Of a stretch of 64,000 bases of DNA, positions 17,362-35,726 are shown in pieces. Made by a program: the position numbers and the translations under genes. Below the pieces are notes generated by a model, which worked only from the letters and a program-made list of their open reading frames with translations, ran no database searches and was not told the origin of the DNA. Where the stretch lies: the NCBI GenBank assembly GCA_963664295.1, contig OY760935.1:512001-576000 (forward strand), read 5' to 3'. Origin of the DNA: Candidatus Altimarinota bacterium. Lineage in GTDB: Bacteria > Patescibacteriota > Gracilibacteria > CAIRYL01 > GCA-016699755. How positions within the stretch are numbered: position 1 is the first letter of the stretch; the number at the start of each line of letters is the position of its first letter.

Positions 17362-20300
17362 TTACAGCTTCCCTCTAAGTTTTTTCATCAAATCTTCACA
17401 TGCAAGGTGTTGAGATATTGTGTCGTTATCTTTTCCTTTTTGTTTAAGTTCCTCATATTTTGCAAAATGAGGGTCATCTTTCATTTGTTCTGGATTTTTA
17501 ATTTTTTGTGAATATTCTGTGTATTTATCATACAAAGGTCTTAAGTAAGTATCATCTCTCCAATAGTCTTTATTTCCTGCGTATGCTTTTGACCATACAA
17601 ATTGATAGGCTGTGATGAAATCTATTTCTGAAGATATTTCATATTTCTGCCTAAATGATTCATATAAATCACGATAGATTTCAAAGTTGTCTCTATTTTG
17701 TGGCATTTGGAATGCACGCATTAAATCTACGATACTGGCGTATAAAGTTGCTTCTTTTCCTTTTGTTTTATCTGGTTCTTCTTTGTTTAATTCATATTCA
17801 TCATGATCTCTTATGTTTCCTTCTTTAAAGTCCCTTTTCCATTGATCAACATCATAGTTTGCATATAAATAATCTCCTACTTCTTTCATTGCCATTAAGA
17901 CCAAAGCTCTATCAGAAGCACGCATAAATCTAGCATTAAAACTTAAATCTAAATTTAACACTGGCATCATTTGACCATTAATTTCCATGAAATCATTTTG
18001 ATTACCATAAAAATCTGTTCTTATTCTAAGTAAATCTTGATTTCTATCATCATTTTCGTGATGCCAACCTTGAACATTATATCTATTCGCACTCTCATCA
18101 ACACCCAGATTTACAAATGGAAAAAATACTTCTCTTGTTCTATCAACCACATTCAAAATATCTAAAGGTCTGTGCCCCGGTTGCTCATTAGAATTGGGCA
18201 AAGTAGGGTCACATGTTTCCTCTGATCTAAAACGAGAAATAATCAAGTTATGTGCATTATCTCGACTATCTGGTATGCCATCGCCATCGCTATCAATAAC
18301 ATCTAATATTTTTGGATCATTAGGAAGCACATAGTTACTTGAAGTTATGCCTCTGGTTTTTTTAGGCAATGTCCATCTGCCATTTTTCTTGATAAAAGGA
18401 CTTGGTCTTTTTCTCATTTCTTCAGCAATTTGATCCCAGTTTTGATCTCGCAAAACACCATCAAGAATAACTTCAAAAACATTCTGACCTTCAACAATAT
18501 TGCTTATATCTTTTGTTCCTATGTATTGAGCATAAGGAAACACTCTTTTAATATGTGGCGCATAACTCTTAAAGCTCCAACAAGCTTGACCAACAAATAT
18601 TTTTGATTGATCTGATTCTTTAATAGCATATTTTTTATAAGCACTTTGAATCGCACTAGAAAGTTGATTTCTACCTCCTGCGTGTCCAACATATTGAACA
18701 TAATCCACATTTGGGTCATTCATTTTTTCAAAAACCTTTTCATTGTTACTACCAAATGTTTTAGGAATGTGTACTTCTATGGGTATATTCTTGCCATCTT
18801 TATCTGTTTTTGCTCCATGCATGATGTACACCATTTCTTCTTTTCTGTCTTCTCTTTTCCAGCCATATTCAGGACGCTCAAATAAATCTGCCTCCCAAGA
18901 CCTAAAAAACTCTTCCTGTCCAAAATAAATATAAGAAACAAATTTTCCATCAGCCAAAATCTCTTTTCGTGGTGGAGCATCAGGTAATAAGTTCTGAGAT
19001 TGTTTTAATTTTTCTATTCTTTCTGCATATTTCCGATATTTAAAACTCCCTCGTCTTAAGCCAATGCTTAAATTTGTTGTCAAAAATCTAGCAATTTTAT
19101 TTTTATCAGACTCTGCATAGGTTAAAATCTTATCAAATTGCTCAGGTGTGCCTTTTTTAAGAAAAAGGAAGCCAATTGCAGAATAAATTTTATTCAAAGC
19201 TTCTATGTCTGTAATTGGAAGCTCTTTTCCTTCAAACAAAATATCTTCAAAAAGCTTGCTGATATCAGCAATGCTAGAGCTATTCGGAAAGTTATCAACA
19301 AAGCGCATTAAAAGCCTAAAAGACATCATTGTTTTTTTTGTTTTATCTATATTTACATCTTTTTCAACATTAAGATTATTAATGTTCCAAAAAATAAATT
19401 CTGCGCTAAAATTTTCTACAAGAGGAATAAAATCAATTTTTTCCACTTTAAGCAAACCTAAAAACAAATGTTGTTTTTCAGCCTGAGTGAACTGATTTGT
19501 TTTTTCTAAAAAACTTACACAAGATTTTTTAGAAAAGTTTTTAACAACATTTAATCCATCACAAAAAGCTTCTATTATCAAAAGATTATTGTTTTCATTG
19601 TTTTTAATTAAAAACTCTGACACATCTTCGCCGTTTATAAATGCAACTAATGCATTAAAATAATTTTCATTATTTATTTTTTCTGGCTTAAAAAACTGAT
19701 AAAATCCTTCAGTCCTAAGCTTAAGGTTAATTTTATTTAATTGAACAATTTTTTTAGCATACTCACCATTCACGCCCTCCTCAAGTGGTAATTCATCAAT
19801 AAATGATGCACGTTCAAAACTGCAAATATTTAAATTAGTAAAAAAGATTATTAAGGCATCAACATAATCTTTGTTAACACCTTTTTCTAAAACAAAATTA
19901 CTAATAAATCCGTCATCAAGTTTTATGCCTGCCAAACCCAACCTAATTAAAGATTTAACATAATCTTCATTAACTGCTTTTTCAATACTAAACACTCTCA
20001 CAAAAGAACCATCAACGTCAAAACCTGCTTGGGCAAGCTTTATTAATATTTTTACATAATCCTTGTTTTCTGCCTTTTCTATACTAAGGCTGTCAACAAA
20101 AAATCCATCAACATCAAAACCTGCTTGGGCAAGCTTTATTAATTTATCGATATAATTTTTGTTTTCTGCTTTTTCAAAACTAAAGCTGTAAACAAAAGAA
20201 CCATCAACATCAAAACCTGCTTGGGCAAGCTTTATTAATATTTTTACATAATCCTTGTTTTCTGCCTTTTCTATTGAAAAATATTTCAATAAATACTCTC

Positions 20301-22791
20301 TAATTCTAGAACCTGTTTTATAAAGACTGATTAATGCATCAATATATTCTACGGTAGTGGCTTTTTTAATTGTAAGATTTAGCACTAATTCATGTTTAAT
20401 TTCTATATCTCCCTGATGAAGCTTAATTAATGCATTAACATAATCTGTGTTCGTAAATTTTTCTCTCGGAAAATCTTTCAAGCAGTAATAAAGCTCTATT
20501 CCCGCTTGATCAAGTTTAATAAAATTATTAACACAAACCGAATCAAGAGTGTTTTCCGGACAATATTCAAGAACACCGTAAAAATTTATACCAACACTAC
20601 TTAAGACGATTAAAGCATTAACATAATTCTCATCACTTGCCTTCTCTAGGGTTAAACATTCAATTAAAGAATCTGTTATTTTAATGCCAAATTTTTGAAG
20701 CTTAATTAAAACATCAACATAATATTTATTTTTTAGTTTTTCTGGAGTCAAAACTTTTATTAAATCACTTTCTTCGCGCAAAGAACAAAACTTCACAATA
20801 TTATCCATATAAACTTTATCTCCTACTTCTGCAGATTCCAGCAATTTAACTAAATTTACATCAAAACTTGCTCCTAGTTTTTGTAAAATAAATAATCGCT
20901 CAACACAAGCCTTGTCTTTTATTCTTGCAAAAGTCAAATAGGAAAGTAGGCTAGAAGTTATTGTTAAACCTAATTTGCATAAAGCAAATAATTCTTGAAC
21001 ATAAATTTTGTCTTTAGCTTTTTCCAAAGTAAAATTTTCTATAAATTTACCATCAATTTCTATGCCTGCTTGATGAAGCTTAACTAAGGTGTCAATATAA
21101 TTTTTATCTTTGGATTTTTGAACAGAAAGACTAAAGCTAATTATTCCTATTTTATTATATAATTCAACTACTACATCAACATAAGCCTGATTCATTTTTT
21201 CAGACCCAAGACTTTGTATCAAATATTCATCATAACATCTTACGCCTATTTTCCGCAAATCATCAAAAATTTCAATATTATCTTTAACAAGGCTAGCACT
21301 ATTTTTACACCAAAAATAATCATTAAACAAATTATTATCAACCTTAAATCCTGCCTGATGAAGCTCTATAAAAAAATCCAACTTGTTAATGGTAAATTCA
21401 TTAAAATTACGACACAAAGGTTCAACTTCTATGCCTGCTTGATGCATTTTAAGTATAGCGTTTATATATTGTTCTTGTTTAAATTCTTCAACCGAAAAAC
21501 CATCAATCAACCTACTATCAACTTTTATGCCTGCTTGATGAAGCATGATTAAGGTTTTAATATAATTTTCATCTTTGCCTTTATCTGTATATAACTCTTT
21601 AACTAATTCGCCATTAATTTCTATGCCTGCTTTATGCAGAGCTATTAAATTTTTGAGATAAATTTCATCCTTTACCCTTCTTGAGTCCAATGCTTTTATT
21701 AAGCTTCTATTAATTTTTATGCCTTCTTTTTGTAAGCTCATCAAAACATCAACATAACCTTCCTCTTTAAATTTCCTAGGATAAAAATATGCAATTAGCT
21801 CACTATCAATCTCTTCTGACTGCCTCATTTTAATCATTGCATTGACATATCCTGCTTTTGTAGCTTGTTGTATAAAAAAATTTTTAACTAATTTGCCATC
21901 AACTTTTATACCTGCTTGATGAAACTTGATTAAAGCATCAATATAATCTTGATTTTGAGATCTTGCCAAATCAAAATGCCACAAAAAACTTCCATCAATA
22001 TCTATCTCTGCTTTGTGCAATTTTATTAAAGCATCAATATATTCTTTGTCCCAACTCTTTAAACTGTCTAAGGAAAAATTATCTATGTCTACAGCCTGTT
22101 TGAAGGTGATTAAAGTGTTAACATTGTCTTCATTTTTCAACATTCTTACAACATTGTTTCGAAAAAAATTGGAATCAATAACTATACCTAATTTCTGAAG
22201 TTTTACTAATGTGTCTATAAAGTGTTCATTATTTAGTTCAACACCGCTCAGTGCTCCAATAAAAAAGAAATCTATCTTTGCTCCCAATTCATGAAACATT
22301 ATCAAAGTATCAACATATTTTTCATGGTTTACTTTAATACAAGACAAAAATCTAATTGTTTCACTATCAATCCTTATACCTGCTTCACTTAATTTTATTA
22401 AAGCTTCAGAATATTTTTTATTATATACTTTTTCTAAGGTAAATCTTTTAACAAATTCACTGTCAACTATCACGCCTGCCTGATGAAAACTTAATAATAA
22501 ATCTGCATCCAAGTGTCCCTTGATTTGATTTAAGTAAGCATTTAATAAATCAGGATTACTATCTAATATAACAAATAATGCATCTTCAAGATTATACACT
22601 GGAGCAATATTTTCAATTCTTGTGTACTGCTTAAAATCATTAATATCCTTTTTAATGTCAATTATTTTTTGAACAAGCTCTTTTTGTAGTTTTTCAATAT
22701 CAATATCTGACTTTTCTAAATCTTCTCTAAGTCCTTGAATATCAATTTTAACTGCCTCAAATTTCTGAGAAAAAGACTCATTATTGCTCAT
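17362..22791 (-). CDS. 1809-aa protein with 32-aa helical repeats and a C-terminal putative clan-CD cysteine protease domain
   Basis: Repeat consensus Y(I/V)DALIKLHQAGI.(I/V)D..(L/F)V..(L/F)T.EK. C-terminal YVGHAG and GQACWS, followed by DSDGDGIPD. Confidence 0.8.
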   Translation of the reverse strand: MSNNESFSQKFEAVKIDIQGLREDLEKSDIDIEKLQKELVQKIIDIKKDINDFKQYTRIENIAPVYNLEDALFVILDSNPDLLNAYLNQIKGHLDADLLLSFHQAGVIVDSEFVKRFTLEKVYNKKYSEALIKLSEAGIRIDSETIRFLSCIKVNHEKYVDTLIMFHELGAKIDFFFIGALSGVELNNEHFIDTLVKLQKLGIVIDSNFFRNNVVRMLKNEDNVNTLITFKQAVDIDNFSLDSLKSWDKEYIDALIKLHKAEIDIDGSFLWHFDLARSQNQDYIDALIKFHQAGIKVDGKLVKNFFIQQATKAGYVNAMIKMRQSEEIDSELIAYFYPRKFKEEGYVDVLMSLQKEGIKINRSLIKALDSRRVKDEIYLKNLIALHKAGIEINGELVKELYTDKGKDENYIKTLIMLHQAGIKVDSRLIDGFSVEEFKQEQYINAILKMHQAGIEVEPLCRNFNEFTINKLDFFIELHQAGFKVDNNLFNDYFWCKNSASLVKDNIEIFDDLRKIGVRCYDEYLIQSLGSEKMNQAYVDVVVELYNKIGIISFSLSVQKSKDKNYIDTLVKLHQAGIEIDGKFIENFTLEKAKDKIYVQELFALCKLGLTITSSLLSYLTFARIKDKACVERLFILQKLGASFDVNLVKLLESAEVGDKVYMDNIVKFCSLREESDLIKVLTPEKLKNKYYVDVLIKLQKFGIKITDSLIECLTLEKASDENYVNALIVLSSVGINFYGVLEYCPENTLDSVCVNNFIKLDQAGIELYYCLKDFPREKFTNTDYVNALIKLHQGDIEIKHELVLNLTIKKATTVEYIDALISLYKTGSRIREYLLKYFSIEKAENKDYVKILIKLAQAGFDVDGSFVYSFSFEKAENKNYIDKLIKLAQAGFDVDGFFVDSLSIEKAENKDYVKILIKLAQAGFDVDGSFVRVFSIEKAVNEDYVKSLIRLGLAGIKLDDGFISNFVLEKGVNKDYVDALIIFFTNLNICSFERASFIDELPLEEGVNGEYAKKIVQLNKINLKLRTEGFYQFFKPEKINNENYFNALVAFINGEDVSEFLIKNNENNNLLIIEAFCDGLNVVKNFSKKSCVSFLEKTNQFTQAEKQHLFLGLLKVEKIDFIPLVENFSAEFIFWNINNLNVEKDVNIDKTKKTMMSFRLLMRFVDNFPNSSSIADISKLFEDILFEGKELPITDIEALNKIYSAIGFLFLKKGTPEQFDKILTYAESDKNKIARFLTTNLSIGLRRGSFKYRKYAERIEKLKQSQNLLPDAPPRKEILADGKFVSYIYFGQEEFFRSWEADLFERPEYGWKREDRKEEMVYIMHGAKTDKDGKNIPIEVHIPKTFGSNNEKVFEKMNDPNVDYVQYVGHAGGRNQLSSAIQSAYKKYAIKESDQSKIFVGQACWSFKSYAPHIKRVFPYAQYIGTKDISNIVEGQNVFEVILDGVLRDQNWDQIAEEMRKRPSPFIKKNGRWTLPKKTRGITSSNYVLPNDPKILDVIDSDGDGIPDSRDNAHNLIISRFRSEETCDPTLPNSNEQPGHRPLDILNVVDRTREVFFPFVNLGVDESANRYNVQGWHHENDDRNQDLLRIRTDFYGNQNDFMEINGQMMPVLNLDLSFNARFMRASDRALVLMAMKEVGDYLYANYDVDQWKRDFKEGNIRDHDEYELNKEEPDKTKGKEATLYASIVDLMRAFQMPQNRDNFEIYRDLYESFRQKYEISSEIDFITAYQFVWSKAYAGNKDYWRDDTYLRPLYDKYTEYSQKIKNPEQMKDDPHFAKYEELKQKGKDNDTISQHLACEDLMKKLRGKL
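19990..20275 (-). repeat. About 3 near-identical 96-bp tandem units (recent repeat expansion)
   Basis: aaacctgcttgggcaagctttattaat at 20021, 20117 and 20213. Confidence 0.9.
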
Positions 22792-22948
22792 TTTTTTTAG
22801 ATAAATTTATTGATCTTAGCTCTTGCTCTATTAATTCTAAGTCTTTCAAAGCTTTATTTAACCTTACTTTCTTAATTTTATTTCTTTTTAACTTACCTTC
22901 TATTAAACAAGCTTCTTTTTCTGCCTGCTTATTGCTTTCATCTGACAT
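22781..22948 (-). CDS. 55-aa helical peptide, partner of the repeat protein (not in the ORF track)
   Basis: MSDESNKQAEKEACLIEGKLKRNKIKKVRLNKALKDLELIEQELRSINLSKKNEQ. It overlaps the downstream start and has a paralogue at 35529-35675. Confidence 0.8.
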   Translation of the reverse strand: MSDESNKQAEKEACLIEGKLKRNKIKKVRLNKALKDLELIEQELRSINLSKKNEQ

Positions 22949-22958
22949 AGATTAATTT

Positions 22959-23001
22959 TAATAATTCTTATTATTATATAATATTTTGCTTAAAAAAGCA
23001 A
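22959..23001 (-). promoter_or_regulatory. Sigma70-type promoter of module copy 1
   Basis: TTGCTT-17-TATAAT. 20 bp are identical to 35684-35703. Confidence 0.7.
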
Positions 23002-23105
23002 ATTATATACTAATTATTGCAAATAATACACACTGAAATATTAGAGCTCTAAATTGGTCAATGTTCAAAAAATTTTTATTTTAAGTCAATAAAGTCACAA
23101 CTACA

Positions 23106-24812
23106 TTAAAATTTTCTTTTTCTGTTTCTTTTTTTAGAAAATGACTTTTTAAAGCTAGTTTTTTTTCTTTTTGGTGAACCTAATTTTCTTTTTACAGGTA
23201 AATTTTTTGATTCAAATCCACTTATTTTTTTAATTTCAATTACTGTTCCTTTAAATTTTGCTTTTTGAAAAACTTTTAATAAAGTTTCTGTAAATTCAGC
23301 ATCAATCTCAAAAAAGGATTCGCTTTGTCTAATGTCAATTTGCCCTATTTCAACATACTTTAAAGCTGATTTTTTGATCAAAGTTTCTATTAAACGCTTT
23401 GGTCCAAAGTTGTTATTTTTACCTAAATTAATCTTAAACTTAGCAAATTGAATATTTTTCTTCCTTGTAATTTTATCACCTCCTTTTGTAGCAACATTTA
23501 AATCCGGCGCGTTCTTGTAAAAAGATAAAAAACGATTAAATTCCATAGAAATAATTTGCGCAATTAAGTCTTTTTTGCTTAATGTTTCAAATTTTTTACA
23601 CAAAGGATCAAGATAGGGTTCAATCTCTTTTTTGTCAATTTCTACATCAGCAATCTTGTTCATTAACTGAAAAAGTTGAGCTTCACAAATTTCTTTACCA
23701 AGAGGAATTTGTTTTTGCTGAAAATCTTTACCTATTTTTTTCTCTAAAAAGCGTATTTTTTGTATTTCTTTCATATGAACAATAACTATCGAAATACCGC
23801 TTTTTTTAGCTCTTCCAGTGCGCCCACTACGATGAATATAAGTTTCCAAGCTATCTGGTAAATTATAGCTAATTATATGTGTCAAATCATTCACATCTAA
23901 TCCACGCGCTGCGATATCTGTTGCTACCAAAAGCTGAACTTGCTTATTTCGAAAGCGATTCATAGTTGCACTACGCTGTTCCTGTGACATATCTCCATGT
24001 AAAGCTTCAGCAGAATAATGATCACGAATTAATTTATCAGCAACCTCTTGAGTCTCTCTCCTTGTTCGACAAAAAATAATACCATAAATATCAGGATTTA
24101 CATCGGCAATACGCCTTAAAACTTTATAGCGATCTTTTGCATGAGCCACATAATAAAAATGTTCAATTTTAGTGAGACTGGCGTTTTTTTTATGTATTTC
24201 TATTTCTTCTGCCTCACGCATGTATTTTTGTGCAATTTTTTTCACATTACTTGGCATAGTTGCTGAAAAAAGCAAAGTTTGCTTTTTCTGAGGAGTTTCT
24301 GCCAAAATAGCATCTAAATCTTCCTTGAAGCCCATATTTAAAATCTCATCAGCTTCATCAATAACTAACCATTGAATATTATTAATTTTTAACTTTTTCT
24401 TACGAATTAAATCCAAAACTCGCCCTGGAGTTCCAACTACAATACTCTTTTCTTTTTTAAGTTCTCTTATTTGAACATCAATACGCGCCCCTCCATAAAT
24501 AGGAACAACCGAGATATTTGGTAGATATTTAATAAAATTATTTATATCTTTAGTAATTTGTACACAAAGCTCACGCGTTGGGCAAATAATAATTGCCTGA
24601 ACATGCTTGGATTTTGGATCTATTTGTTCAATAATCGGCAAACCAAAAGCAGCTGTTTTGCCAGTTCCAGTCTGAGCAAGAGCTATAAGATCTTTTTTTG
24701 AACTCAAGATATAAGGAATACTTTTTTCTTGAATTTCTGTAGGCTTATCAAAACCAAGATCCTGAATAGCATCAAGAATTTCTTTTTTTAAGCCAAGATT
24801 TTTAAAATTCAT
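23106..24812 (-). CDS. DEAD-box RNA helicase (DeaD/CshA-like, with DbpA-type C-terminal domain)
   Basis: Q motif, AQTGTGKT, PTREL, TPGR, DEAD, SAT, ARGLD and HRSGRTGR. Confidence 0.93.
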   Translation of the reverse strand: MNFKNLGLKKEILDAIQDLGFDKPTEIQEKSIPYILSSKKDLIALAQTGTGKTAAFGLPIIEQIDPKSKHVQAIIICPTRELCVQITKDINNFIKYLPNISVVPIYGGARIDVQIRELKKEKSIVVGTPGRVLDLIRKKKLKINNIQWLVIDEADEILNMGFKEDLDAILAETPQKKQTLLFSATMPSNVKKIAQKYMREAEEIEIHKKNASLTKIEHFYYVAHAKDRYKVLRRIADVNPDIYGIIFCRTRRETQEVADKLIRDHYSAEALHGDMSQEQRSATMNRFRNKQVQLLVATDIAARGLDVNDLTHIISYNLPDSLETYIHRSGRTGRAKKSGISIVIVHMKEIQKIRFLEKKIGKDFQQKQIPLGKEICEAQLFQLMNKIADVEIDKKEIEPYLDPLCKKFETLSKKDLIAQIISMEFNRFLSFYKNAPDLNVATKGGDKITRKKNIQFAKFKINLGKNNNFGPKRLIETLIKKSALKYVEIGQIDIRQSESFFEIDAEFTETLLKVFQKAKFKGTVIEIKKISGFESKNLPVKRKLGSPKRKKTSFKKSFSKKRNRKRKF

Positions 24813-24855
24813 CAATATAATTTAAAGAGCTGTAAAAATATACTCAATTTATTTT

Positions 24856-26649
24856 TTATTTTGAGCGCTTTCTGTCAATTTCTTTTAGGTATTTTTTTCG
24901 TAAACGAATTCGAGTAGGAGTAATTTCTGCGTATTCGTCGTCTTTAATATACTCTATTGCTTTCTCTAATGTAATAGGAATTATAGGAGTCAGAGTAAGA
25001 GCATCATCAGAACCAGAAGCTCGCACATTAGTTAACTTCTTGTTTTTAGTTGGATTAACATTAATATCAGTTCCTTGATTGTGTTCACCAATAATCATTC
25101 CTTCATAAATTTCTGTAGCTGGTTTTATAAACATTGGTCCACGCTCTTGAAGTTTCCATAGTGAATAAGCCATGGCAACACCTGTTTCTGCGGAAATCAT
25201 AGACCCAACACTACGCTTTTCAATATGTCCAAGGTGAGGAGCAAAATGGTCAAATGAATGATAAAAAGTACCTTCCCCGCGAGTAAGAAGCAAAAATAAA
25301 GACTGAAAACCAAGTAGTCCTCTAGTTGGAACAGTAAATTCCAAAAGAGTATTTCCATTATCTGATTGCATATTGGTCATAACTCCCTTTCTTTTTCCTA
25401 AAGCTTCAATAACTGAGCCACTCATAGCATCAGGAACATTAATAACTACATTTTCAATGGGCTCATGTTTTTTGCCATCAATATTTTTCATAATAACTTC
25501 TGGCTGAGAAATCTGTAGCTCAAATCCTTCGCGTCGCATAGTTTCAATTAAAACTGCTATATGCATTTCTCCACGACCATAAACCTTAATTGCATCACTA
25601 TTATCTTGAGGCTCAATTCTTAATCCAACATTAGTTTCTAGCTCTTTTTCTAAGCGATCTTTAATATGCCTACTAGTGACAAACTTCCCTTCACGACCTG
25701 CAAAAGGAGAATCATTCACCATAAATTCAATAGCTAATGAAGGAGGATCTACTTTAATGCTTGGCAAAGCTTCTGCGCTTGCATCAGTACTAATTGTTTC
25801 ACCCACATAAATATCTGGCAAACCAGCAATAGCGACTATGTCACCTGCTTCAACTTTAGAAACCTCTTTTCTCTCCATACCTTGAAAAGTAAAAAGTTTT
25901 GCTACTCTTCCGTTACGTTTTTTATTATTACTTCCGGTTATTATTACGCTTTGATTATTTTCTAAAACACCTTCATAAACACGCCCAATAGCAATTCGTC
26001 CTAAAAAATTATCATAACTCAAAGTTGCTGGTTGCATTCGAAAAGGCACATCCATATTGCCTGGTGCGGGCTCTACATGTTCCAAAATAAAGCTTATCAA
26101 TGGCTGAATATTTTCTCCTTTATCTTCTAGTTTAGCAATGGCAATACCCTCCTTGGCATTAGCATAAATATATGGAAAATCTAATTGTTCTTCAGTTGCT
26201 CCCAATGTAGCAAAAAGATCAAAAGTTAAATCCAAAACCTTATCTGGACGAGCCATAGGTTTGTCAATTTTATTAATCACTACTAATATTTTATGACCTA
26301 ATTCAAGGGATTTTTTTAATACAAATTTAGTCTGTGGCATAGGTCCTTCATAAGCATCCACTACCAATAAAACAGCATCAACTGTTTTAAGAACACGCTC
26401 TACTTCTGACCCAAAATCAGCATGCCCAGGAGTATCTACGATGTTAATCTTTTTCCCTTGATAATTAATAGATGCATTTTTCGCATAAATAGTAATACCA
26501 CGTTCTTTCTCTTGATCATTGCTATCCATAGCTCTTTCCTCAAGCCCTTTATGAGTGTCAAAATTCTCACTAGATTTTAAAAGTGAATCAATAAGAGTAG
26601 TTTTTCCATGATCAACATGGGCCACAACAGCAATATTATAAATTTCCAT
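24856..26649 (-). CDS. typA: Translational GTPase TypA/BipA
   Basis: [33 protein letters not shown] and [12 protein letters not shown]. Confidence 0.97.
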
Positions 26650-26875
26650 CAATTTTTACTAAGAATAATCAAAATGTCCGATAGAATTTACACTAAAATT
26701 TATAGCTCGTCAAGTGTCATATTTTTGAATTAAAAAAAATCAATAGAAATAAAAGCTCAAAAAGTAAACATGGCTATACTTAAAACTTTATGATATTGTT
26801 AGCTTTGAATAGAAAAATTTTAAAAAAATATATTTGCAAGTGCAATATTGTTTTTTGTTACTTTAAAACAAACTT

Positions 26876-28243
26876 ATGAACAGCAAAATTCCAATTAGAT
26901 CTAAAGACGATATTCTAAAATTCTTTTATAGTGCCTCTGTCCCGAAAAAAGAATTACTAATTGGACTAGAAGTAGAAAGAAGTGGTGTTTTAGATATAGA
27001 CTTAAGTCCTGTTTCCTATTCAGGGAAGTCTGGTTATTTAGCAATATTAAAAAAACTTGTAAAAGAGGTTGGCTGGAAAATATCGAACCAAGATGATAAC
27101 GGCAATATTACCTCACTAAAAAGAGGTGGAAGCGAAATACACATAGAAGATGATGGTCGACTAGAATTAGTCAGCAAACCCAGAAAAGGACTTATTAATC
27201 TCTGCCGAGAATATGAAATGCATGCTCACGAAATTGATGAAATTTCTAAAGAGTTTGGCATACGTTGGACATCTATGGGTTGGCAACCTTTTGCAAAAAA
27301 AAGTGAAATAAGATATGCCTTTCCAGAACAAAATGCTATATCAAGCAAACATTACAAAAATCACTATCCCGATTGGCAAGAAAAATTATTTGCAGGATGG
27401 GAAAAGAAAAATAACGGAGTTCATGTAAACTTTGGCTACACATCTGAAGAAGACGCAATTAATAAATTTCAAACTGTATTAAAAATATCACCAATTTTAA
27501 TGGCAATGTTTGCCAATTCTCCACTTACAACTAGTAAATATTCAGGTTTTTTAGCAAAACGTAATCAAACAACATTTATGTGTTGCCCACATCGCACCCA
27601 AATACAAAAAGCTTTCTTTGAAAAAAATTTCAATTTTGATAAATGGGTTGAATACCTTTTAGACTTGCCTATGCGTCGAATTAGTCGTAAAAATAAACAA
27701 ATATTTGTTCCATTATCTTTTAGAAATTACCTAAAAAATGGCTACAAAAATTATCGTCCCCGAATTCAAGATTTATATTTGCATATAAAATCAGTTTGGA
27801 ATGAAGCAAGAATTAAACACTACCTTGAATACAGAGCATTTGATACAGTACCTCCTCACCTTATTCCATCAATTCCAGCAATCATCTGTGGTCTAACTTT
27901 AAATTTAGAAACCATGAAAGAATGCCAAAAATTAGTTAAAAATTGGACATTTAGTGATTATTTAGAAATGCGAAAAAAAGCATTTAAGTATGGATTGCAG
28001 GCAAAAACGCCTAATGGAGAAAAACTACTTCACCTTGCAAAAAAACTTATTAATATTTCCTCCAATTCTTTAAAAATAATGCATAAAAACAAAGTCGAAA
28101 GAATCGATGTGTCTCGCTTCTTGTGGCCAATTAAAGAATATATTTTTGTTCGCGAACAATCTCCAGCTGAATATGTTATGGAAATGTGGCGAGGAGATTG
28201 GCATAAAAATCCACGAAAATTACTTGAATGGTCAGAAAAATAA
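26876..28243 (+). CDS. Glutamate-cysteine ligase family protein (GCS2/EgtA-like)
   Basis: IGLEVE, IEDDGRLEL, GVHVN, AMFANSP and YLEYRAFD. Confidence 0.8.
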   Translation: MNSKIPIRSKDDILKFFYSASVPKKELLIGLEVERSGVLDIDLSPVSYSGKSGYLAILKKLVKEVGWKISNQDDNGNITSLKRGGSEIHIEDDGRLELVSKPRKGLINLCREYEMHAHEIDEISKEFGIRWTSMGWQPFAKKSEIRYAFPEQNAISSKHYKNHYPDWQEKLFAGWEKKNNGVHVNFGYTSEEDAINKFQTVLKISPILMAMFANSPLTTSKYSGFLAKRNQTTFMCCPHRTQIQKAFFEKNFNFDKWVEYLLDLPMRRISRKNKQIFVPLSFRNYLKNGYKNYRPRIQDLYLHIKSVWNEARIKHYLEYRAFDTVPPHLIPSIPAIICGLTLNLETMKECQKLVKNWTFSDYLEMRKKAFKYGLQAKTPNGEKLLHLAKKLINISSNSLKIMHKNKVERIDVSRFLWPIKEYIFVREQSPAEYVMEMWRGDWHKNPRKLLEWSEK

Positions 28244-28375
28244 TTCAAACTCTTTTTTGTCAAATTTACTAATTTATTTTCTTTAATAGCATCAACTTCC
28301 ACGTTAACACCGAAAAAAATCAATTTCCATTTATAGAAAATTACTAAATTATTTTAAAAAATCAATTTTTACCCA

Positions 28376-28468
28376 GACTGCGTCGTCAACGAACCCGAGG
28401 CTTCGAGGTAGCCATTTCCTGCTTCACAATGAAATAACCTTTGGCTTCGCCACAAAAACATTGCATTG
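28376..28468. repeat. ~94-bp dispersed GC-rich repeat, copy A
   Basis: Near-identical to 33293-33386. Confidence 0.9.
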
Positions 28469-28507
28469 AAGTTCCATATTGAATGATGTACGAAAAATTT
28501 TAACTAC

Positions 28508-28537
28508 AAAAAAAGCCAGTTTGAACTGGCTTTTTTT
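28508..28537. terminator. Bidirectional intrinsic terminator
   Basis: aaaaaaagccagtt-tg-aactggcttttttt between convergent genes. Confidence 0.8.
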
Positions 28538-28557
28538 AAGTCATTAAGTTCTATTTT

Positions 28558-30390
28558 TTATTTTATTAGCTGATAAATAGCTACTGCTGTTTCCCATCTT
28601 GTCAAAACTTTATTTGGTTCAAGATAATTTCCTTTTTCTGGAAATAAATCATATTTTTGCGCTACACCAGCGTACTGATAATACCAATCAGCTAAACTAA
28701 CGTCATAATATGAAACTGATAAATTTTGCTGAAGATTGTGCGCTTCTGTAAGCATTTTAAGAAACTCAGCAGTGGTCACCGTTTGTGCTGGACGAAATTT
28801 GCCATCAGCATATCCGTGAACTAAGCCTTTTTCTTTTGCCTTTTGAACATATTTTGCATACCAAGCATCAGCAGAAACATCTGGAAAAGGAGAAGTATTA
28901 ATATCTTCAACAGAGCCATAAGCAGACAAAACAATAAACTTACATACTTCAGCACGATTTAAGGTTCGATAGCCTTTAAATTTAACCTCTAAAGTTTCTC
29001 TGTTTAGATAACCCTTAATAATATTTTTATGAGAAAGATAAATAGCAGCACGACCTCTAAGTGTTTCTGCAACACTACTATTTATATCTGCATATGGATT
29101 AGATAACTCTTCTTCCTCTTGCACCTCTTGCTCATAGTCATCTTCATCGACAATAGAGATATTTGTGTTTTCATCTACACAAAGACCATTTTCACAATAA
29201 CCTGAACAAGTAACAAGCTTGTAAGTATATTCACTACCATCAAAATAATATTCTTTTAAGATTTTGTCTGACAAACAAACATCTTCATCAACAAAATTAC
29301 TTTTATCAATAAATAATGTGTAAATCCTACTTTCTAAAGGAAAATTGGCATCAATTTCCACTGCATCACCTGTATCTAAAGACTCTGCATCTATATAGCT
29401 ACTATTTGGAATTGATAAATATATATTTGAGTCAACTTCTCCATCAAAATCTACTTTTATATCAAAAATTTCTTTTTTTCCTGCCTCTATTTCAAAATTT
29501 AAATTATCAAAATAAGCATAGCCATTGTTCAAAAATCCTGTCTCTAATAAAACAGATCCATGATAAAGATTAATTTCATCTACTTCTTCTTCATAATCTA
29601 TAGATCCATTAATTCTAAGCTTAATTTCCTCTATTGCAATATCGCTATTTTGACTTTCATTCGTGAAATAAATATCTAAAGCATTAAATTTTTCAAAATT
29701 ATAATCAACATTTTGATTAAAAGGAGAGCTTACTTCTATTTTTAAAACTTCATCATCTAATAAATTATCATCATTTTGGCTATTATTAGTGTCATCGCCA
29801 TAAACTTCATCATAACTAACATCATAACTAACAGAAGAAATTACGTATATATTACCCCTTATAGGAAAATCACCATGAATATCTCCTGTAGTAAGATCAT
29901 CTCCTGATGATAAATCTTCTATTTCTATGTTATTTGCACTATTAAGTTCAATAGAAAAATAATCACCTGCAATAGCATCATCATCAATATCAAATTTGAG
30001 AGTTAATTCCAACTCTTGATCCTCCTGCAACATAAGATTTAGATTGTAAAATCTTAGCTCCCCATCATTGTTTAAGTCTGCAAAATCTAAAACAGTATTA
30101 CCTTGTAATAATTTTATGTCATCAAATGACTCTTGATGATATAAACCATACATTTTAAAAACAAGGTCTTTCAGTACAAGATCACAATTATCTGCACGAA
30201 CATTAAAAACAAGGACTTCAAAATCTTCAATATCCTTAGGGACAACCTGAGCAGGTTGATTTGATGAAGATAAGGATACATATAATTGCGGTGAACCAAC
30301 AGCCTGAGCAGTGTTAACACCTTGAGAGCTTAAAAAAAATAAACTCATTACAGTAAATAAAATACTGATTTTTCTTATTAAAATTTTCAT
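28558..30390 (-). CDS. Secreted surface protein with two Ig-like repeats and C-terminal SLH domains
   Basis: Signal peptide, a duplicated beta-rich unit (F.NLN..I/L) and FPDVSADAWY..GYADGKFRP. Confidence 0.85.
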   Translation of the reverse strand: MKILIRKISILFTVMSLFFLSSQGVNTAQAVGSPQLYVSLSSSNQPAQVVPKDIEDFEVLVFNVRADNCDLVLKDLVFKMYGLYHQESFDDIKLLQGNTVLDFADLNNDGELRFYNLNLMLQEDQELELTLKFDIDDDAIAGDYFSIELNSANNIEIEDLSSGDDLTTGDIHGDFPIRGNIYVISSVSYDVSYDEVYGDDTNNSQNDDNLLDDEVLKIEVSSPFNQNVDYNFEKFNALDIYFTNESQNSDIAIEEIKLRINGSIDYEEEVDEINLYHGSVLLETGFLNNGYAYFDNLNFEIEAGKKEIFDIKVDFDGEVDSNIYLSIPNSSYIDAESLDTGDAVEIDANFPLESRIYTLFIDKSNFVDEDVCLSDKILKEYYFDGSEYTYKLVTCSGYCENGLCVDENTNISIVDEDDYEQEVQEEEELSNPYADINSSVAETLRGRAAIYLSHKNIIKGYLNRETLEVKFKGYRTLNRAEVCKFIVLSAYGSVEDINTSPFPDVSADAWYAKYVQKAKEKGLVHGYADGKFRPAQTVTTAEFLKMLTEAHNLQQNLSVSYYDVSLADWYYQYAGVAQKYDLFPEKGNYLEPNKVLTRWETAVAIYQLIK

Positions 30391-30425
30391 GATTAAAAAT
30401 AAAAAGTTAAATGTTTAATTATTAA

Positions 30426-30452
30426 AACGAAAGTGAAGATAAAAATCTTACA
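30426..30452 (-). promoter_or_regulatory. Putative ECF-sigma promoter upstream of the SLH gene
   Basis: TGTAAGATTTTT-N11-CGTT, the same as at 32846-32872. Confidence 0.7.
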
Positions 30453-30468
30453 CTTTTTTTGTAATTTT

Positions 30469-32256
30469 TTATAATTCCTGCTCAAAATCATCTAAATTAA
30501 CATCAGAAGGTAAAGGCAAAAGGCATTTTCCATTCTCGCAAGTCCTATCTGAACCACATTGCAGAGCAACATTCCAACTTAAATATGGCTCTGCATTCCA
30601 ATAGTCACACTCATACACAGCATTATCTACACATTTTTTTTGACCTTGATAAAAACATTCATCAGCATGACTCACTATGCACTGTCCTTGCTGACAAGTG
30701 GTTCCACTAGCACAATTTTCATATTTCCATTCAGTATAACCATCATTATTTAAGTCAGTGCAAACTCGCACTTTACCATCAATACATTCTCTTGCGCCTC
30801 TTGTGCACTGATTTGTTATTTTTTTTTCACAAATTCCTAGACTACATTGTTCACTGGAGTCACATGTGTTTATTGTTTGCCAAATTAAACAGCCACTATT
30901 ATTGACCCTGCAAACTTGCACTTTATTGCCTGAACAAATTTGTCTACCAATAGTTGAACACTGATTTTCGCAAGACTGAATACACTCTCCGTCATCACAA
31001 AAATAACCATCACCACAACTTGTTGTATTTTCAAAGCTTAAATAACCTTGGTTATGCCAATTGTTACATTCTAAAATATAATCACCATTACACTTTCTTA
31101 GTCCTTGATACTCACACTCATCTGGCCTTTCTGCCTCTTTAACACTAATAATAAAACTATTTTTATTATTATTTTCATTAATTTCATCAATTAATTTTGT
31201 TGAATCTAATACAACTTTGACATCATATTGATCAATTCTTTCGTAATAATGAAAAAAATTAATTTCCAATGCCTCTTGAGGCAATAAAGAATTAACTAAG
31301 CTTCTGTTTACAATTCCATCTCCCCAATCTATTTCCACAAAAAATTCATTTGCATCAATTTCGCCTAAGTTATTTATTTTAATATACACATTGCTTATTT
31401 TGCCAAGCTTAAAATCATCTAAATCAACTCCAGTTATTACTAAATCGCTAAGTTGAACTTTTTTGTCAGAATTTTGAGTTGTTGTTTGTTCAATTTCTTT
31501 AATTGTTTCTGTAAATAATTCTGTTTCACTAATAATTTCTTCTGACCTGCTAATTTCACCAGAAACAGAAACTAATTCCTTGCTATCTAATCTAACAACT
31601 TCACTCGACAACGATACTGGCTCGATAATCTTTATTTCTTGTTTTTTCTCTATTGTTTCAACAACCTTTAATAATGTTTCTTTTTGGTTTTTTGCAGAAT
31701 CAGTGATTAGATTTTCCATTTCCTTTTCTAGTACAGGATCTTCGATTTGATCAACAATCTCAATCGCCTCATTAATATTAGCGCTAATTTCATTCAAAGA
31801 AGCTTTATCAACAACACCGCCGTCTGCAAGAACTACAACCTCTTCTAATCTTCTTTCAGCAAATTTTATATTTTTTTTAACTTTTCCTTCATCAGAAAAA
31901 GTAAGATCGTATTCAATTTCTTCAACAAATCTTTTTAAAAAATACAAATTACTCTCTCTGTTAACATTAGGTGATATATAAGCATAACCTGTTGTTATGC
32001 CCATTGACACAGTCAAAATTACCAAAGACAAAAGAAAACTAAAACTACGCATTCCCAAAAACACACTCCTAAAAAACAAAACAAAAAATCCTTTTTCATG
32101 TTTACCTTTATCCTGTTTATGTAAATATTTATTTACAAGCCTAGTAAACAAAATATCTCTAAAAATAGGATTGGGCTTATTCTTATTAAATTCTTTTAAA
32201 AGAGCCTTTTTCATTATTTCTTTTTCTGCCTTTAATGATTGTTTTTTATTGCTCAT
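30469..32256 (-). CDS. Putative anti-sigma factor: TM, DUF5667-like helical domain, CARDB/Ig domain and Cys-rich repeats
   Basis: Overlaps the ECF sigma stop. LYFLKR..E..L..AERRLEE, SDLVI..NLG..IDEINENNN and four Cys-rich units. Confidence 0.7.
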   Translation of the reverse strand: MSNKKQSLKAEKEIMKKALLKEFNKNKPNPIFRDILFTRLVNKYLHKQDKGKHEKGFFVLFFRSVFLGMRSFSFLLSLVILTVSMGITTGYAYISPNVNRESNLYFLKRFVEEIEYDLTFSDEGKVKKNIKFAERRLEEVVVLADGGVVDKASLNEISANINEAIEIVDQIEDPVLEKEMENLITDSAKNQKETLLKVVETIEKKQEIKIIEPVSLSSEVVRLDSKELVSVSGEISRSEEIISETELFTETIKEIEQTTTQNSDKKVQLSDLVITGVDLDDFKLGKISNVYIKINNLGEIDANEFFVEIDWGDGIVNRSLVNSLLPQEALEINFFHYYERIDQYDVKVVLDSTKLIDEINENNNKNSFIISVKEAERPDECEYQGLRKCNGDYILECNNWHNQGYLSFENTTSCGDGYFCDDGECIQSCENQCSTIGRQICSGNKVQVCRVNNSGCLIWQTINTCDSSEQCSLGICEKKITNQCTRGARECIDGKVRVCTDLNNDGYTEWKYENCASGTTCQQGQCIVSHADECFYQGQKKCVDNAVYECDYWNAEPYLSWNVALQCGSDRTCENGKCLLPLPSDVNLDDFEQEL

Positions 32257-32809
32257 TAACCAAGTAAGCTAATTGTTTTTTTAAAGTACTAATAGAACGA
32301 TGGATCATAACATTTATATTTGCCTCAGTAGTATTTAATGTCTTTGCAATTTCTTTATGAGACAAGTCTTCTGTTAATTTTAATGCCCACATTGCTTGTT
32401 GTTTTTTTGGCAAAACTTTAATTGCTTTATTTAAATGTTGTTGAATTATTTTTTGGTCTATTGATTTTAAATCAAAATCCTTTTTTGGTTCTTCTGCTGG
32501 CAATAAATCTTCAAATGAACTTGTTTTTTTATTCTTTTGTTTTCTGTAGTAATCAATCAGCTTATTATGTGCCACTGTGTATATCCAAGAAGAAAACGAA
32601 CCTTGTGAATCATCAAATTTATCAAGAGATTGAAATATTTTTTCAAAAGTATCTGATGTCAAATCCTCTGCCTCTTCTCTTGCTTGCAAACGAAAATAAA
32701 AAAACTTATAAACCTTGTCAAAAAATCTATTAAATAATGCTGAAAAATAATTCAAATCCTTTTTTGCCAAATTTACTAATTCATTATCTTCAATATCGTC
32801 AATTTCCAC
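32246..32809 (-). CDS. ECF RNA polymerase sigma factor
   Basis: AEDLTSDTF, FSSWIYTVAHNKLIDYYR and LSHKEIAKTL. The GTG start at 32809 is preferred because it lies downstream of the putative promoter. Confidence 0.92.
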   Translation of the reverse strand: MEIDDIEDNELVNLAKKDLNYFSALFNRFFDKVYKFFYFRLQAREEAEDLTSDTFEKIFQSLDKFDDSQGSFSSWIYTVAHNKLIDYYRKQKNKKTSSFEDLLPAEEPKKDFDLKSIDQKIIQQHLNKAIKVLPKKQQAMWALKLTEDLSHKEIAKTLNTTEANINVMIHRSISTLKKQLAYLVNEQ

Positions 32810-32845
32810 ATTAGCGCCGAAAAAAATCGATCTCCATTTATCAAG

Positions 32846-32872
32846 AACGATTTCTAAATCAAAAATCTTACA
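32846..32872 (-). promoter_or_regulatory. Putative autoregulatory ECF promoter
   Basis: TGTAAGATTTTT-N11-CGTT. Confidence 0.7.
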
Positions 32873-33202
32873 TATTTTTTTAAGCCAATGTGCAAAAAAA
32901 CCTGCAACAAACATTAAAATAGAATTCTTATATATAAATTGTACAACACACTACCTTAATTTACTTATTTATGCAATATTTTTTTTATAAGTCAAATTAT
33001 AATACATAAAACTATAAAAAGTAGTCTTACGACTTAGCTATAAAAACATTTTAACCACTTAGAAAACTACTAAATTATTTTAAAAAATCGATTTTTACTG
33101 TGTGTAAAAGATCACGATTTTATTATAAATAATTTCCCCTCCACTCCGCGCCCTCGTTATTCACTCGGTCGCTCCGTTGCGGGTCGTAATTCTCGCTAAG
33201 CA

Positions 33203-33221
33203 ATTGGAGCGGGTAACGGGA
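33203..33221 (-). repeat. Duplicated 3' end of tRNA-Gly
   Basis: attggagcgggtaacggga, also at 33383-33401. Confidence 0.85.
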
Positions 33222-33292
33222 GCTTTTTTGCTTCGCAAAAAACTTCCTCCTCGTCCTCGGAAAGTTCAAAATAAATTTTTCACTTTCACTCG

Positions 33293-33386
33293 GACTGCGT
33301 CGTCAACGAACCCGAGGCTTCGAGGTAGCCATTTCCTGCTTAACAATGAAATAACCTTGTGGCTTCGCCACAAGAACATTTCATTG
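33293..33386. repeat. ~94-bp dispersed repeat, copy B, abutting the tRNA-Gly CCA end
   Basis: Near-identical to 28376-28468. Confidence 0.9.
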
Positions 33387-33460
33387 GAGCGGGTAACGGG
33401 ACTCGAACCCGTGCCGCCGGCTTGGAAGGCCGGAGCTCTAGCCAACTGAGCTATACCCGC
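33385..33460 (-). tRNA. tRNA-Gly(TCC)
   Basis: GCGGGTA/TACCCGC acceptor stem, anticodon arm CCGGC-CTTCCAA-GCCGG, GTTCGAG T-loop and encoded CCA. Confidence 0.95.
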
Positions 33461-33556
33461 TTACTTAAGTCAGCAAGCCATATTTTACCTTTTGAAATAA
33501 AATTTGCAAGCTTTTTTTAGCTTACAATAAATCATTGCAATTCAATTCTTGACCAA

Positions 33557-35524
33557 CTAATCTTTAAGCATTTTTATTAGTTCATCAATAGTTTTATTTT
33601 GAGCATCTTCTCTTCTTAATTTGCGCAATAAATTTCCATTAATTATCACTCCTCTATCACCTAAATCGGATAAAACATCTATATATTGCTCATCTTTTGC
33701 TTTTTCTAGTGTAAGTTCTCTCACTAAATAACCATCAATTTCTATGCCTACATCACGAAGTTCTTTTAAGGCATCCAAATAAACTTGATCATTTGCTTTT
33801 TCTTGTGTAAGTTCGCTCACTAAATAGCCATCAGTTTCTATGCCTACATCACGAAGTTCTTTTAAGGCATCCAAATAAACTTGATCATTTGCTTTTTCTG
33901 TTAATTCTTCTGTGGATAAACTTAATACGTTAATATCAACACTTACTCCTCCTGCTTGCAATTGCCTTAAGGCATCTAGATATTCTTTATTACTAACTGT
34001 TTCTCTATTAAGCCTGCCTACAAAAAGACCATTAATTCTTATGCCTGCTTCGTTAAGATCTTTTAAGGCATTCACATAGCGTTCATCACTAAGCTTTTCC
34101 AGGGTTAAATAATTTAATAACAATTTAGCAGAAGAATTAATAGCTATGCCTGATTTATGTAAGTCTATTAAAGCATCAACATAAACCGTATTTTTAACAT
34201 TTTTTGGTATTAAATTCATAAAATTATACCCACTAACAACAACTCCTCCTTCTCGAAGTCTTATTAGTCCATCAATATATTCTTGATCCTCGGCAGTCTC
34301 TTGTGTCAATTCAGAAGCAACAACACCATCAACATTCACCCCTGCTCTTTGCAAAGAAACTAAAGCCTCTACAAAGGTGGGTATACTAGCTTTTTTTGGT
34401 GTCAAATTACTTATTAAATATCCACTAATATATAAATTAGCGTTTTGAAGCTCAATTAAAGTTTGTATGTAATCAATATTTTGACCTTTTTCTAAAGATA
34501 ATTCATCTACTAAATTGAAATTAATGTCCACTCCGGCATTTTTAAGTGCTATTAAAGCTTTTATATAATCACTATTTTTGCCTTTTTCTGGAATTAATTT
34601 TTCTATTAAACGCTCATCAATGTCTATCTTTGCTAAAGATAATTCTCTTAACATGTTTAAATAAGTCTCATCTTCAAAAATTTTACTTGTTTTTAAATAA
34701 GACATAAGCTCATCACTAAACTCACTAGGATCTATTCCTGCTTGGTAAAGATTTTTAAGTAATTTAATATAATCCTTATCTCTCACTAGCTCTAGCGACA
34801 AACGATCTATAAAAAAACTATTAACCAATGCTCCTGCTTGAATTAGGTCCTCTAAGACAATCATGTAAATTTTATCTTTGGCTTTTTCTAGTGTTAAGGC
34901 CTCTATTAAAAATCCATCAATTTTCACTCCTGCTTTTTGTAGCTTAATTAAAACTCTTATATAAACATTGTCTTTGGCTTTTTCTAGTGTTAAAGAGCTT
35001 ATAAAAAAAGCATTAATATCTATTCCTAGTTTATGAAAACTTTTTAAGATTTTAATATAAGTATTATCTTTGAATTTTTCTAAAGTTAAAGCATCAATAA
35101 AAAAATAAGTAATTTTTACACCTAATTTAGAAAACTCCATTAAAGCATTGATATAAGCATTATTTTTGGCTTTTTCTGGAGTTAAAGCATATATAATATC
35201 ATCATTAATTTCTATTCCCGCTTGATTAAACCTTACTAAAACATCAATGTATTTTTCATTGGCTCTTTTTGGAAAATTTTTTGTTAAAAATTTTCTATAA
35301 TAAGAAACAAATAAATCAGGATTATCTTTTAAGATTTTATTAAAAATAAGCAAAAATTTATCTTGAGCATCATAATCTTCTACTTGGTCAATTTGCTCAC
35401 GAACCTTAAACATTTTTTGAGAAATTTTTTCCTGCAAAACTTCATTGGTTTTTTCAGATTTTTCTAATTCTTGCTTAACTTGAGCAATTTTTTCTTCAAC
35501 GCCTTTAAAGCTTTCATTTACCAC
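33557..35524 (-). CDS. 655-aa 32-aa-repeat protein, paralogue of 17362-22791 without the C-terminal domain
   Basis: Same repeat consensus and a homologous N-terminus (LEKS, IL..NPDL..Y). A 96-bp near-perfect duplication lies around 33720-33900. Confidence 0.85.
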   Translation of the reverse strand: MVNESFKGVEEKIAQVKQELEKSEKTNEVLQEKISQKMFKVREQIDQVEDYDAQDKFLLIFNKILKDNPDLFVSYYRKFLTKNFPKRANEKYIDVLVRFNQAGIEINDDIIYALTPEKAKNNAYINALMEFSKLGVKITYFFIDALTLEKFKDNTYIKILKSFHKLGIDINAFFISSLTLEKAKDNVYIRVLIKLQKAGVKIDGFLIEALTLEKAKDKIYMIVLEDLIQAGALVNSFFIDRLSLELVRDKDYIKLLKNLYQAGIDPSEFSDELMSYLKTSKIFEDETYLNMLRELSLAKIDIDERLIEKLIPEKGKNSDYIKALIALKNAGVDINFNLVDELSLEKGQNIDYIQTLIELQNANLYISGYLISNLTPKKASIPTFVEALVSLQRAGVNVDGVVASELTQETAEDQEYIDGLIRLREGGVVVSGYNFMNLIPKNVKNTVYVDALIDLHKSGIAINSSAKLLLNYLTLEKLSDERYVNALKDLNEAGIRINGLFVGRLNRETVSNKEYLDALRQLQAGGVSVDINVLSLSTEELTEKANDQVYLDALKELRDVGIETDGYLVSELTQEKANDQVYLDALKELRDVGIEIDGYLVRELTLEKAKDEQYIDVLSDLGDRGVIINGNLLRKLRREDAQNKTIDELIKMLKD

Positions 35525-35528
35525 TTTT

Positions 35529-35675
35529 TTAATTCAAATTTGTTAATTTTAATTTTTGTTCTAATAGCTCCAAATCGTGCAAAGCCTTGGTTAATCTTTG
35601 GTGTTTTATTTTATTTCTCTGAGTTTTATTTTTTATTGCACAAATTTCCTGTTCTTCTTTTTTGTTATCTGTCAT
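35529..35675 (-). CDS. 48-aa helical peptide, paralogue of 22781-22948 (not in the ORF track)
   Basis: MTDNKKEEQEICAIKNKTQRNKIKHQRLTKALHDLELLEQKLKLTNLN. Confidence 0.8.
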   Translation of the reverse strand: MTDNKKEEQEICAIKNKTQRNKIKHQRLTKALHDLELLEQKLKLTNLN

Positions 35676-35683
35676 TATTTATA

Positions 35684-35726
35684 TAATAATTCTTATTATT
35701 ATAACATAAAAAGATAAAATATGCAA
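35684..35726 (-). promoter_or_regulatory. Sigma70-type promoter of module copy 2
   Basis: TTGCAT-17-TATAAT, with 20 bp shared with 22959-22978. Confidence 0.7.

Follow-up and report, generated by a model that had tools for sequence, protein, structure and literature searches.

The window analysed here is a stretch of 64,000 nucleotides, positions 512001-576000 of contig C1 in genome G000, which is a single contig of 1,215,430 bases with 33.5% G+C and uses genetic code 11. The small genome, its type IV secretion parts and the source label of a near homologue (P0009) point to Patescibacteria. Its reverse strand carries two large genes, LA and LB, both of which contain a repeat of 32 residues. 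Each is directly preceded by a small gene, pA and pB respectively. The features are collected in Table 1.

Table 1. Features of the two gene pairs and one neighbouring gene, with positions counted in the window.
Feature	Position	Strand	Description
LA, 1809 aa	17362..22791	-	N-terminal helical domain, 32-aa repeats, helical region, His-Cys domain, DxDxDG motif, helical tail
DxDxDGxxDxxD motif of LA	18259..18294	-	aa 1500-1511; predicted calcium-binding; 86-98% conserved in family
Predicted cysteine-protease domain of LA	18322..18954	-	about aa 1280-1490; His1370 at 18682-18684; Cys1404 at 18580-18582
LA repeat region	19639..22503	-	aa 97-1051; 24 matches of 32-aa unit; net charge -17
LA N-terminal helical domain	22537..22791	-	about aa 1-85; acidic; homologous to LB N-terminus; putative peptide-binding part
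pA	22781..22948	-	55 aa; basic, pI 9.4; likely helical; stop overlaps LA start by 11 nt
Promoter A, predicted sigma-70	22959..23001	-	-35 box TTGCTT 23001-22996; 17-nt spacer; shared 20-bp stretch 22978-22959
LB, 655 aa	33557..35524	-	predicted three-helix bundle aa 1-84, then 17 repeats; GTG start
pB	35529..35675	-	48 aa; basic, pI 9.5; likely helical; 4-nt gap to LB
Promoter B, predicted sigma-70	35684..35726	-	-35 box TTGCAT 35726-35721; 17-nt spacer; shared 20-bp stretch 35703-35684
VirD4-like type IV coupling protein	36008..38632	-	neighbour, outside the module

The original prediction described the small frames ahead of both repeat genes as homologous, and this is borne out. pA and pB are 58% identical (E about 3e-12 by tblastn against the 1.2-Mb genome), and both are already gene calls in the public protein set (P0004 and P0005). 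Of the 48 codons in their alignment, 20 encode a different residue; the other 28 conserve it, half of them (14) through an identical codon and half (14) through a synonymous one. The resulting values of pS (0.75) and pN (0.24) indicate that both genes are coding, with purifying selection acting on the protein. The silent sites are saturated, and the duplication is therefore old. Similarity at the DNA level runs continuously from the promoter via the peptide into the large gene. The short overlap in one pair and the short gap in the other fit translational coupling.

As predicted, neither large protein has a hydrophobic signal peptide, LA carries a protease-like domain and LB is without one. 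Both also lack a membrane segment, and LB has no catalytic domain. Beyond its repeats and helical region, LA has a C-terminal part of 600 residues. It contains 17 cysteines in all and could be a cytoplasmic protein. The N-termini of LA and LB, previously described as coiled-coil-like, are indeed homologous (z 10.7, 0/2000 shuffles). The description of the fold can be refined: the LB model (mean pLDDT 68) predicts a three-helix bundle and not a long coiled coil.

Promoters of the two pairs

The identical 20-bp stretch reported ahead of both pairs, with a -35 box at 17 nt, was found, and it occurs exactly twice in the genome. It consists of the -10 box and the next 14 bases, with TTG 23 bases upstream, and the -10 box lies 24 nt (A) or 22 nt (B) from the start codon. 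Both -35 boxes are weak, with 3/6 consensus bases. A consensus promoter scanner returned no site for A, and its sole site for B has an 18-nt spacer. Promoter B lies within the 45-bp gap to a divergent Smr gene. This gap (window 35676-35726) is near-palindromic, with -10 boxes on both strands.

A scan of the genome gave 85 TTG/-10 sites ahead of genes, and just downstream of the -10 box the same letters are favoured genome-wide. The 20-bp identity is thus best regarded as an ordinary sigma-70-type promoter and not as a private element, and the class to which it belongs is near the consensus of the whole genome, which reaches 45-65% at its best positions. Compared with A and B over the nine bases following the -10 box, six sites match at 9/9 and seven at 8/9 (13 of the 85, in a class defined post hoc), and these best 13 include the gene for PrgI and two type IV pilin genes. 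The products scanned came from nine genes picked by eye, seven or eight from the 11 other genes of the 8-9/9 class and one or two from 7/9; they are PrgI, the two type IV pilins and six of nine without an informative family. The likeness to the promoters of secretion genes is a post hoc hint that regulation may be shared. Written as AATAWGAAT after the -10 box, the class heads the genes for PrgI and the two type IV pilins as well as orphan genes. Genes named by eye as dnaK-, tuf- and gap-like have low scores in it.

The 32-residue repeat and the His-Cys domain

The 32-residue repeat is real. A profile built from nine LB units gave, at a permissive threshold, 17 matches in LB and 24 in LA. The repeat regions are acidic, with net charges of -17, -20 and -51. 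Three of 300 genomes of the class had matches; in one of them (G149) the match of 50 residues does not amount to a clear repeat gene, and it was excluded from the counts. No repeat was found in 40 related genomes, nor any match in phages. The repeat is present in proteins P0001-P0003 too. In P0001 it is fused to a zinc-peptidase-like segment that scores below the Pfam cut-off, and in P0003 to a sister of the LA His-Cys domain, described below.

The original prediction called for a test of whether the peptide always precedes this repeat family, and named repeat genes that generally lack it as a refutation. The peptide precedes LA and LB, but none (0/3) of the other readable repeat genes, which partly refutes the prediction. 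The first of these, LD (G000:190685-194713), encodes a protein of 1342 residues with 16 repeat matches and, judged by eye, a lipoprotein-type N-terminus; it has its own promoter, but neither the bundle nor an upstream peptide. The second (G296:C27) encodes a lipoprotein-type protein of 145 residues, again by eye, and in the third (G057:C60) the repeat lies ahead of a sister His-Cys domain; the upstream peptide is absent from both. The peptide therefore does not track the repeats. Nor does it track the protease, since LB has a peptide and no protease. LD also has acidic DxDGDG segments.

No sequence match to a solved structure was found, and fold searches with the repeats were generic, with no clear match among the matches listed. 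The repeat is without a convincing named family. A lead on its origin comes from the N-terminal region of FloA/YqfA (PF12127), where residues 350-425 of LA align with profile positions 24-99, a segment of equal length. The whole-protein score of 45.2 bits (cut-off 34) is summed over repeats, and the score in the genome search is 20.7 bits. The alignment covers 76/314 positions, about a quarter of the model, and the NCBIfam score is 43.8 against a cut-off of 393. A full-length flotillin-like FloA was rejected on this coverage and on the absence of a membrane segment. The match is a lead suggested by sequence likeness and does not make LA a member of that family.

The His-Cys domain belongs to a wide unnamed family. 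A profile of the C-termini of LA and of LC, a gene described below, found 125 cluster representatives among 1.84 billion proteins, with lengths of up to 7587 residues. Among the sequences covering both columns (of 126 aligned), the His is present in 118/119, the Cys in 114/119 and both in 113/119. In the model of LA (pLDDT 49, predicted from 2 sequences) a β-strand precedes the His and another the Cys. This resembles the CHAT domain (PF12770) and clan CD in general, where the His follows a hydrophobic strand and a second strand leads up to the Cys about 34 residues on. When the profile is aligned with six of the seven matched CHAT sequences, the His and the Cys each fall on their CHAT counterpart, in an alignment of 91 columns. 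The score is 26.7, compared with 8-12 in 16 controls (1 reversed, 15 shuffled), with E 0.0017 and an HH probability of 15%. The LA family differs from CHAT in having Gly-His-Ala/Ser in place of His-Gly, and in the DxDxDG motif that comes afterwards.

None of 59 family members was above the curated cut-off of the Pfam families CHAT, Peptidase_C14, Peptidase_C25 or DUF4347, and none of the 59 had a Pfam match for this domain. Searches of the genome itself for these four families gave no match at LA-type genes; a C25 match at G000:290624 is located in an unrelated protein and was discarded. Fold searches with the poor protease model gave generic α/β results (best Z 7.7), with no caspase-type fold among the matches listed. 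We consider the LA domain to be with good probability a clan CD cysteine protease, its activity being predicted, and its putative caspase/CHAT-type fold is likely.

A second His-Cys family, with the motifs HRGHSY and LGSCGG, is found in Patescibacteria and Bacteroidota and includes P0003. It is homologous to the LA domain (HH probability 98%, E 2.6e-13, 108 sequences), the probability being 93% from two sequences alone. Here also the domain is fused behind helical repeats, and once behind the 32-residue repeat (P0003, G057). It is however a distinct subfamily, for which no upstream peptide was found and which has no Pfam name; its Atlas neighbours are unnamed Bacteroidota proteins. At two loci (L022 and L025) a sister-family protease gene lies directly 5' of an acidic open reading frame of 76-83 residues, unlike the basic peptide, which lies upstream.

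The LA protease domain was found in 0/300 genomes of the class and 0/400 of the phylum, and a word-indexed search returned LA alone. Its close metagenomic relatives are P0133 (1714 aa) and P0134 (1990 aa), which have 69% and 51% C-terminal identity and were reached through P0008 and P0009. Their C-termini are alike but their bodies are different, which shows domain swapping; the N-terminus of P0133 matches that of LC. Metagenome scans for the DNA around these two found nothing. Three LC-like fragments (P0010, P0018/P0135 and P0025), each on a contig with a listed length of 94,373, suggest a broken copy in another genome.

The DxDxDG motif is predicted to bind calcium, by analogy with thrombospondin type 3 repeats. 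Peptidase domains together with thrombospondin type 3 repeats have been described in large extracellular proteins of predatory Omnitrophota (10.1101/2023.11.21.568195); the word caspase does not appear in the part of that paper considered here.

A probable third pair and the range of the peptide

A third large gene, LC (G000:459853-464883, 1676 aa), has a helical N-terminus and the His-Cys domain, without the repeats. A basic open reading frame of 49 residues, pC, lies 12 nt upstream and has its own promoter, with the same spacing as A and B; the pair spans G000:C1:459853-465045 (L032). pC aligns with pA at z 3.6 and with pB at z 2.4. These scores exceed those of 112/112 K/E/L-rich control windows, coiled-coil composition being a feature that inflates peptide alignment scores. 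Under a pA/pB profile pC ranks 12th of 7905 small open reading frames (E 4.5). The N-terminus of LC aligns with that of LB (z 3.8-4.1), while its alignment with LA is not significant (z 1.7-1.8). LC is thus probably a third peptide-led gene. The N-terminal helical domain then appears to be the single part that the peptide-led genes, namely LA, LB and probably LC, all have in common. The net charges of the three peptides are +4, +4 and +2, and those of the N-termini -9, -2 and -1.

A further small-gene pair, at G000:19434-20985, was considered as a fourth and excluded, as its z values are below 1 against pA, pB and pC. It consists of a promoter, a very basic open reading frame of 51 residues and an overlapping 470-residue orphan with a helical N-terminus (L067, on contig C1).

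Outside these pairs the peptide has a very limited range. In 40 related genomes there were four weak matches (E 0.002-0.09), all inside longer frames, which were dismissed as chance. A profile search of a word-indexed protein database (7 candidates) returned pA and pB alone, and neither peptide matched a sequence family in Pfam, NCBIfam or PADLOC. The one further occurrence is in run X4, a seawater metagenome from another study, which contains a close strain that keeps the two large genes and the junction of pB with LB. A single contig of 187 bases links the 3' portion of pB to the start of LB; the one change listed in pB is silent, and the LB start is changed from GTG to ATG. pA is outside the coverage of the contigs, whose depths are under 5. 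Within the databases searched, the peptide is therefore found in one genome and one close strain. Of 28 changed codons in LB of run X4, 17 are synonymous, 10 alter the residue and one is the start codon, compared with 17/19 silent changes in a helicase gene (among the matches listed). LB is therefore constrained, but less so than a housekeeping gene. The literature on the peptide, the repeat and the His-Cys domain, mainly open-access papers with supplements aside, yielded nothing; supplements could list these proteins.

Possible functions of the pairs and neighbouring genes

Pairs of a small chaperone or partner and a secreted cargo are found in type III, type VI and type VII secretion. The pairs described here resemble them in several ways. 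The small gene is directly upstream and likely co-translated, the large protein is modular and lacks a Sec signal, and a shared N-terminal helical domain is joined to C-terminal domains that are swapped. They differ in that pA and pB are much shorter and are basic. A small partner gene, an N-terminal domain and exchangeable payloads together have the look of a chaperone-effector pair.

We tentatively favour, at somewhat less than even probability, a lineage-restricted operon of a partner and its cargo, in which the cargo would be exported without a signal peptide, possibly by type IV secretion. Peptide and cargo would be made together from one promoter and co-translated. The basic peptide would pack onto the acidic three-helix bundle at the cargo N-terminus, and would act as a dedicated chaperone or export partner of the large protein. 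The cargo, a predicted extracellular or host-directed solenoid, would leave without a Sec signal, possibly via the type IV secretion parts of the genome, and the target bound by its repeats would lie on a surface or in the host. The His-Cys domain of LA may cut a host or surface protein, or LA itself, and LB would be a binding-only version.

In support of this proposal, the peptide-led genes share the helical N-terminus, whereas LD, which has a signal, lacks both bundle and peptide. Where the repeats carry a Sec-type signal, bundle and peptide are both missing, which suggests that the two together replace the signal. The opposite charges of peptides and N-termini, the promoter and above-control scores of pC, the alignment of LB and LC at their N-termini, and the retention of the two large genes and of the pB-LB junction in the close strain point the same way. 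Further points in favour are the repeat in two lipoprotein-type proteins, its fusion to peptidase-like and sister His-Cys parts, and the DxDxDG motif conserved after the protease domain. Against these stand the weak rank of pC, the non-significant LA-LC alignment, the post hoc promoter class, the unstable position of the coupling-protein neighbour, the failure to match a caspase-type fold, and a possible cytoplasmic location of LA. The original prediction named a chaperone, an inhibitor or an export partner as the role of the peptide. Chaperone or export partner appears the best reading, and inhibitor fits badly, as LB has no protease. Nothing was found in favour of the large protein as a sensor with the short copy as a decoy.

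Type IV secretion is essential in one species of Patescibacteria, bacteria that depend on host cells, and its cargo is left open and unnamed in the parts considered of the papers concerned (PMC10633639, PMC12102498, PMC12857230). G000 has VirD4-like, VirB4-like, PrgI and pilin genes, and the promoter class includes PrgI and pilins, which would fit export by this route. The link itself comes from two things, the promoter likeness and the missing signal peptide, and the same parts of these papers name no effector, signal or chaperone resembling the genes described here. A small partner gene of this kind would give a handle on protein export towards the host in bacteria with small genomes.

The same observations allow a bolder hypothesis, which we regard as doubtful. 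Peptide and bundle may form a two-part export tag of Patescibacteria that hands interchangeable cargoes to the type IV coupling protein for delivery to the host. The basic helix of 50 residues would complete a bundle with the cargo N-terminus, and the cargoes would be a repeat-only binder, a repeat-protease and a protease with another body. If true, the cargoes would be candidates for the first effectors of the type IV system, and the peptides for the chaperones that go with them.

The peptide could instead be a real but independent small gene, itself secreted or acting as a translational coupler, that was copied along and makes no contact with the large protein. The continuous similarity from promoter to large gene is what a single duplication would give, the pair has turned up in a single genome and one close strain, and small frames before large genes are common (29 cases in 579 large open reading frames, by a loose rule). 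Nevertheless, the duplication is old, yet selection has preserved both peptides, and they have kept their position at two unrelated loci, probably three. As regards adjacency, the small gene is kept with a putative cargo gene at two loci, probably three, in one genome, and at one junction in run X4, and was not found elsewhere in the searches made. This alternative is unlikely.

Much the same can be said of a pair that stays inside the cell, with the peptide as a structural or regulatory subunit and ligand binding by the repeats switching the protease on, as in a sensor or defence-type system. The absence of a signal peptide and a membrane segment would suit it, as would the weak CHAT alignment; TPR-CHAT proteins have this layout of repeat and caspase-like protease in the cytoplasm. 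However, PADLOC anti-phage defence profiles matched 0/5 proteins tested, no NTPase or effector gene adjoins either pair, and both the repeat in lipoprotein-type proteins and the DxDxDG motif speak against it. We consider it improbable.

An inhibitor or immunity protein for the protease is a poorer candidate still. The His-Cys domain is present in two of the three genes led by a peptide, but LB, with no protease, keeps its 58%-identical peptide under selection, and by eye no such basic peptide accompanies eight sister-family protease genes of other genomes (among the matches listed). It is very unlikely that the repeats read DNA or RNA like TALE, mTERF or PPR proteins, with the peptide as accessory factor. 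The helical unit of 32 residues would be suitable, and there are weak structural matches to PPR (E about 1e-3, TM 0.14 or less) and one mTERF-rich cluster below the Atlas bar, a further fold search having little bearing on the repeat part; however, the repeats are acidic and occur in lipoprotein-type proteins, and there is no Pfam match to TALE, mTERF or PPR. Finally, each large gene is in the +1 frame relative to its peptide, and A-runs occur where the two meet, but a single protein made by +1 frameshifting there is scarcely credible: ahead of their start codons the large frames stay open for just 5 and 3 codons, the shift in B would be needed at the stop codon itself, the B start changes from GTG to ATG in run X4, and in the third pair peptide and large gene share a frame, separated by a stop.

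Returning to the operon of partner and cargo, the module is real, uncharacterised and narrowly distributed, and is a plausible variant of known partner-plus-cargo arrangements rather than a demonstrated new system, its peptide being limited to one genome and one close strain. The analysis has in addition defined two unnamed families, the 32-residue helical repeat and the His-Cys domain of 125 representatives, for which Pfam has no model.

An E-x-R/K-L/I-I/V-F-like motif occurs in the first 35 residues of several large signal-less proteins and is a possible export signal. The sites are G000:C1:382221, 464883, 665207 and 769392, P0133, P0134 and L047:6587. The G000 examples are three genes with their own promoter and the LC operon, all scoring at least 6/9 in the promoter class. 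A loose form of the pattern was found in 9/705 N-termini compared with 4 in a control window, and enrichment was not demonstrated.

The gene order around the coupling-protein gene and around typA differs in the genomes of the same family that were compared (5 and 2, respectively). Elsewhere in the window, positions 14173-16134 encode a carbamoyltransferase-like protein of 653 residues with an unassigned N-terminal extension of 300 residues. A tRNA-Gly gene lies just downstream of LB (33161-33460), with a partial repeat of the 3' part of the tRNA ahead of it, visible as a repeated stretch in translations of the open reading frames. Between 30469 and 32914 an ECF-sigma-like gene, identified by eye, is followed by a gene for a DUF5667/CARDB membrane protein with cysteine-rich repeats, and the two are likely to be a sigma/anti-sigma pair.
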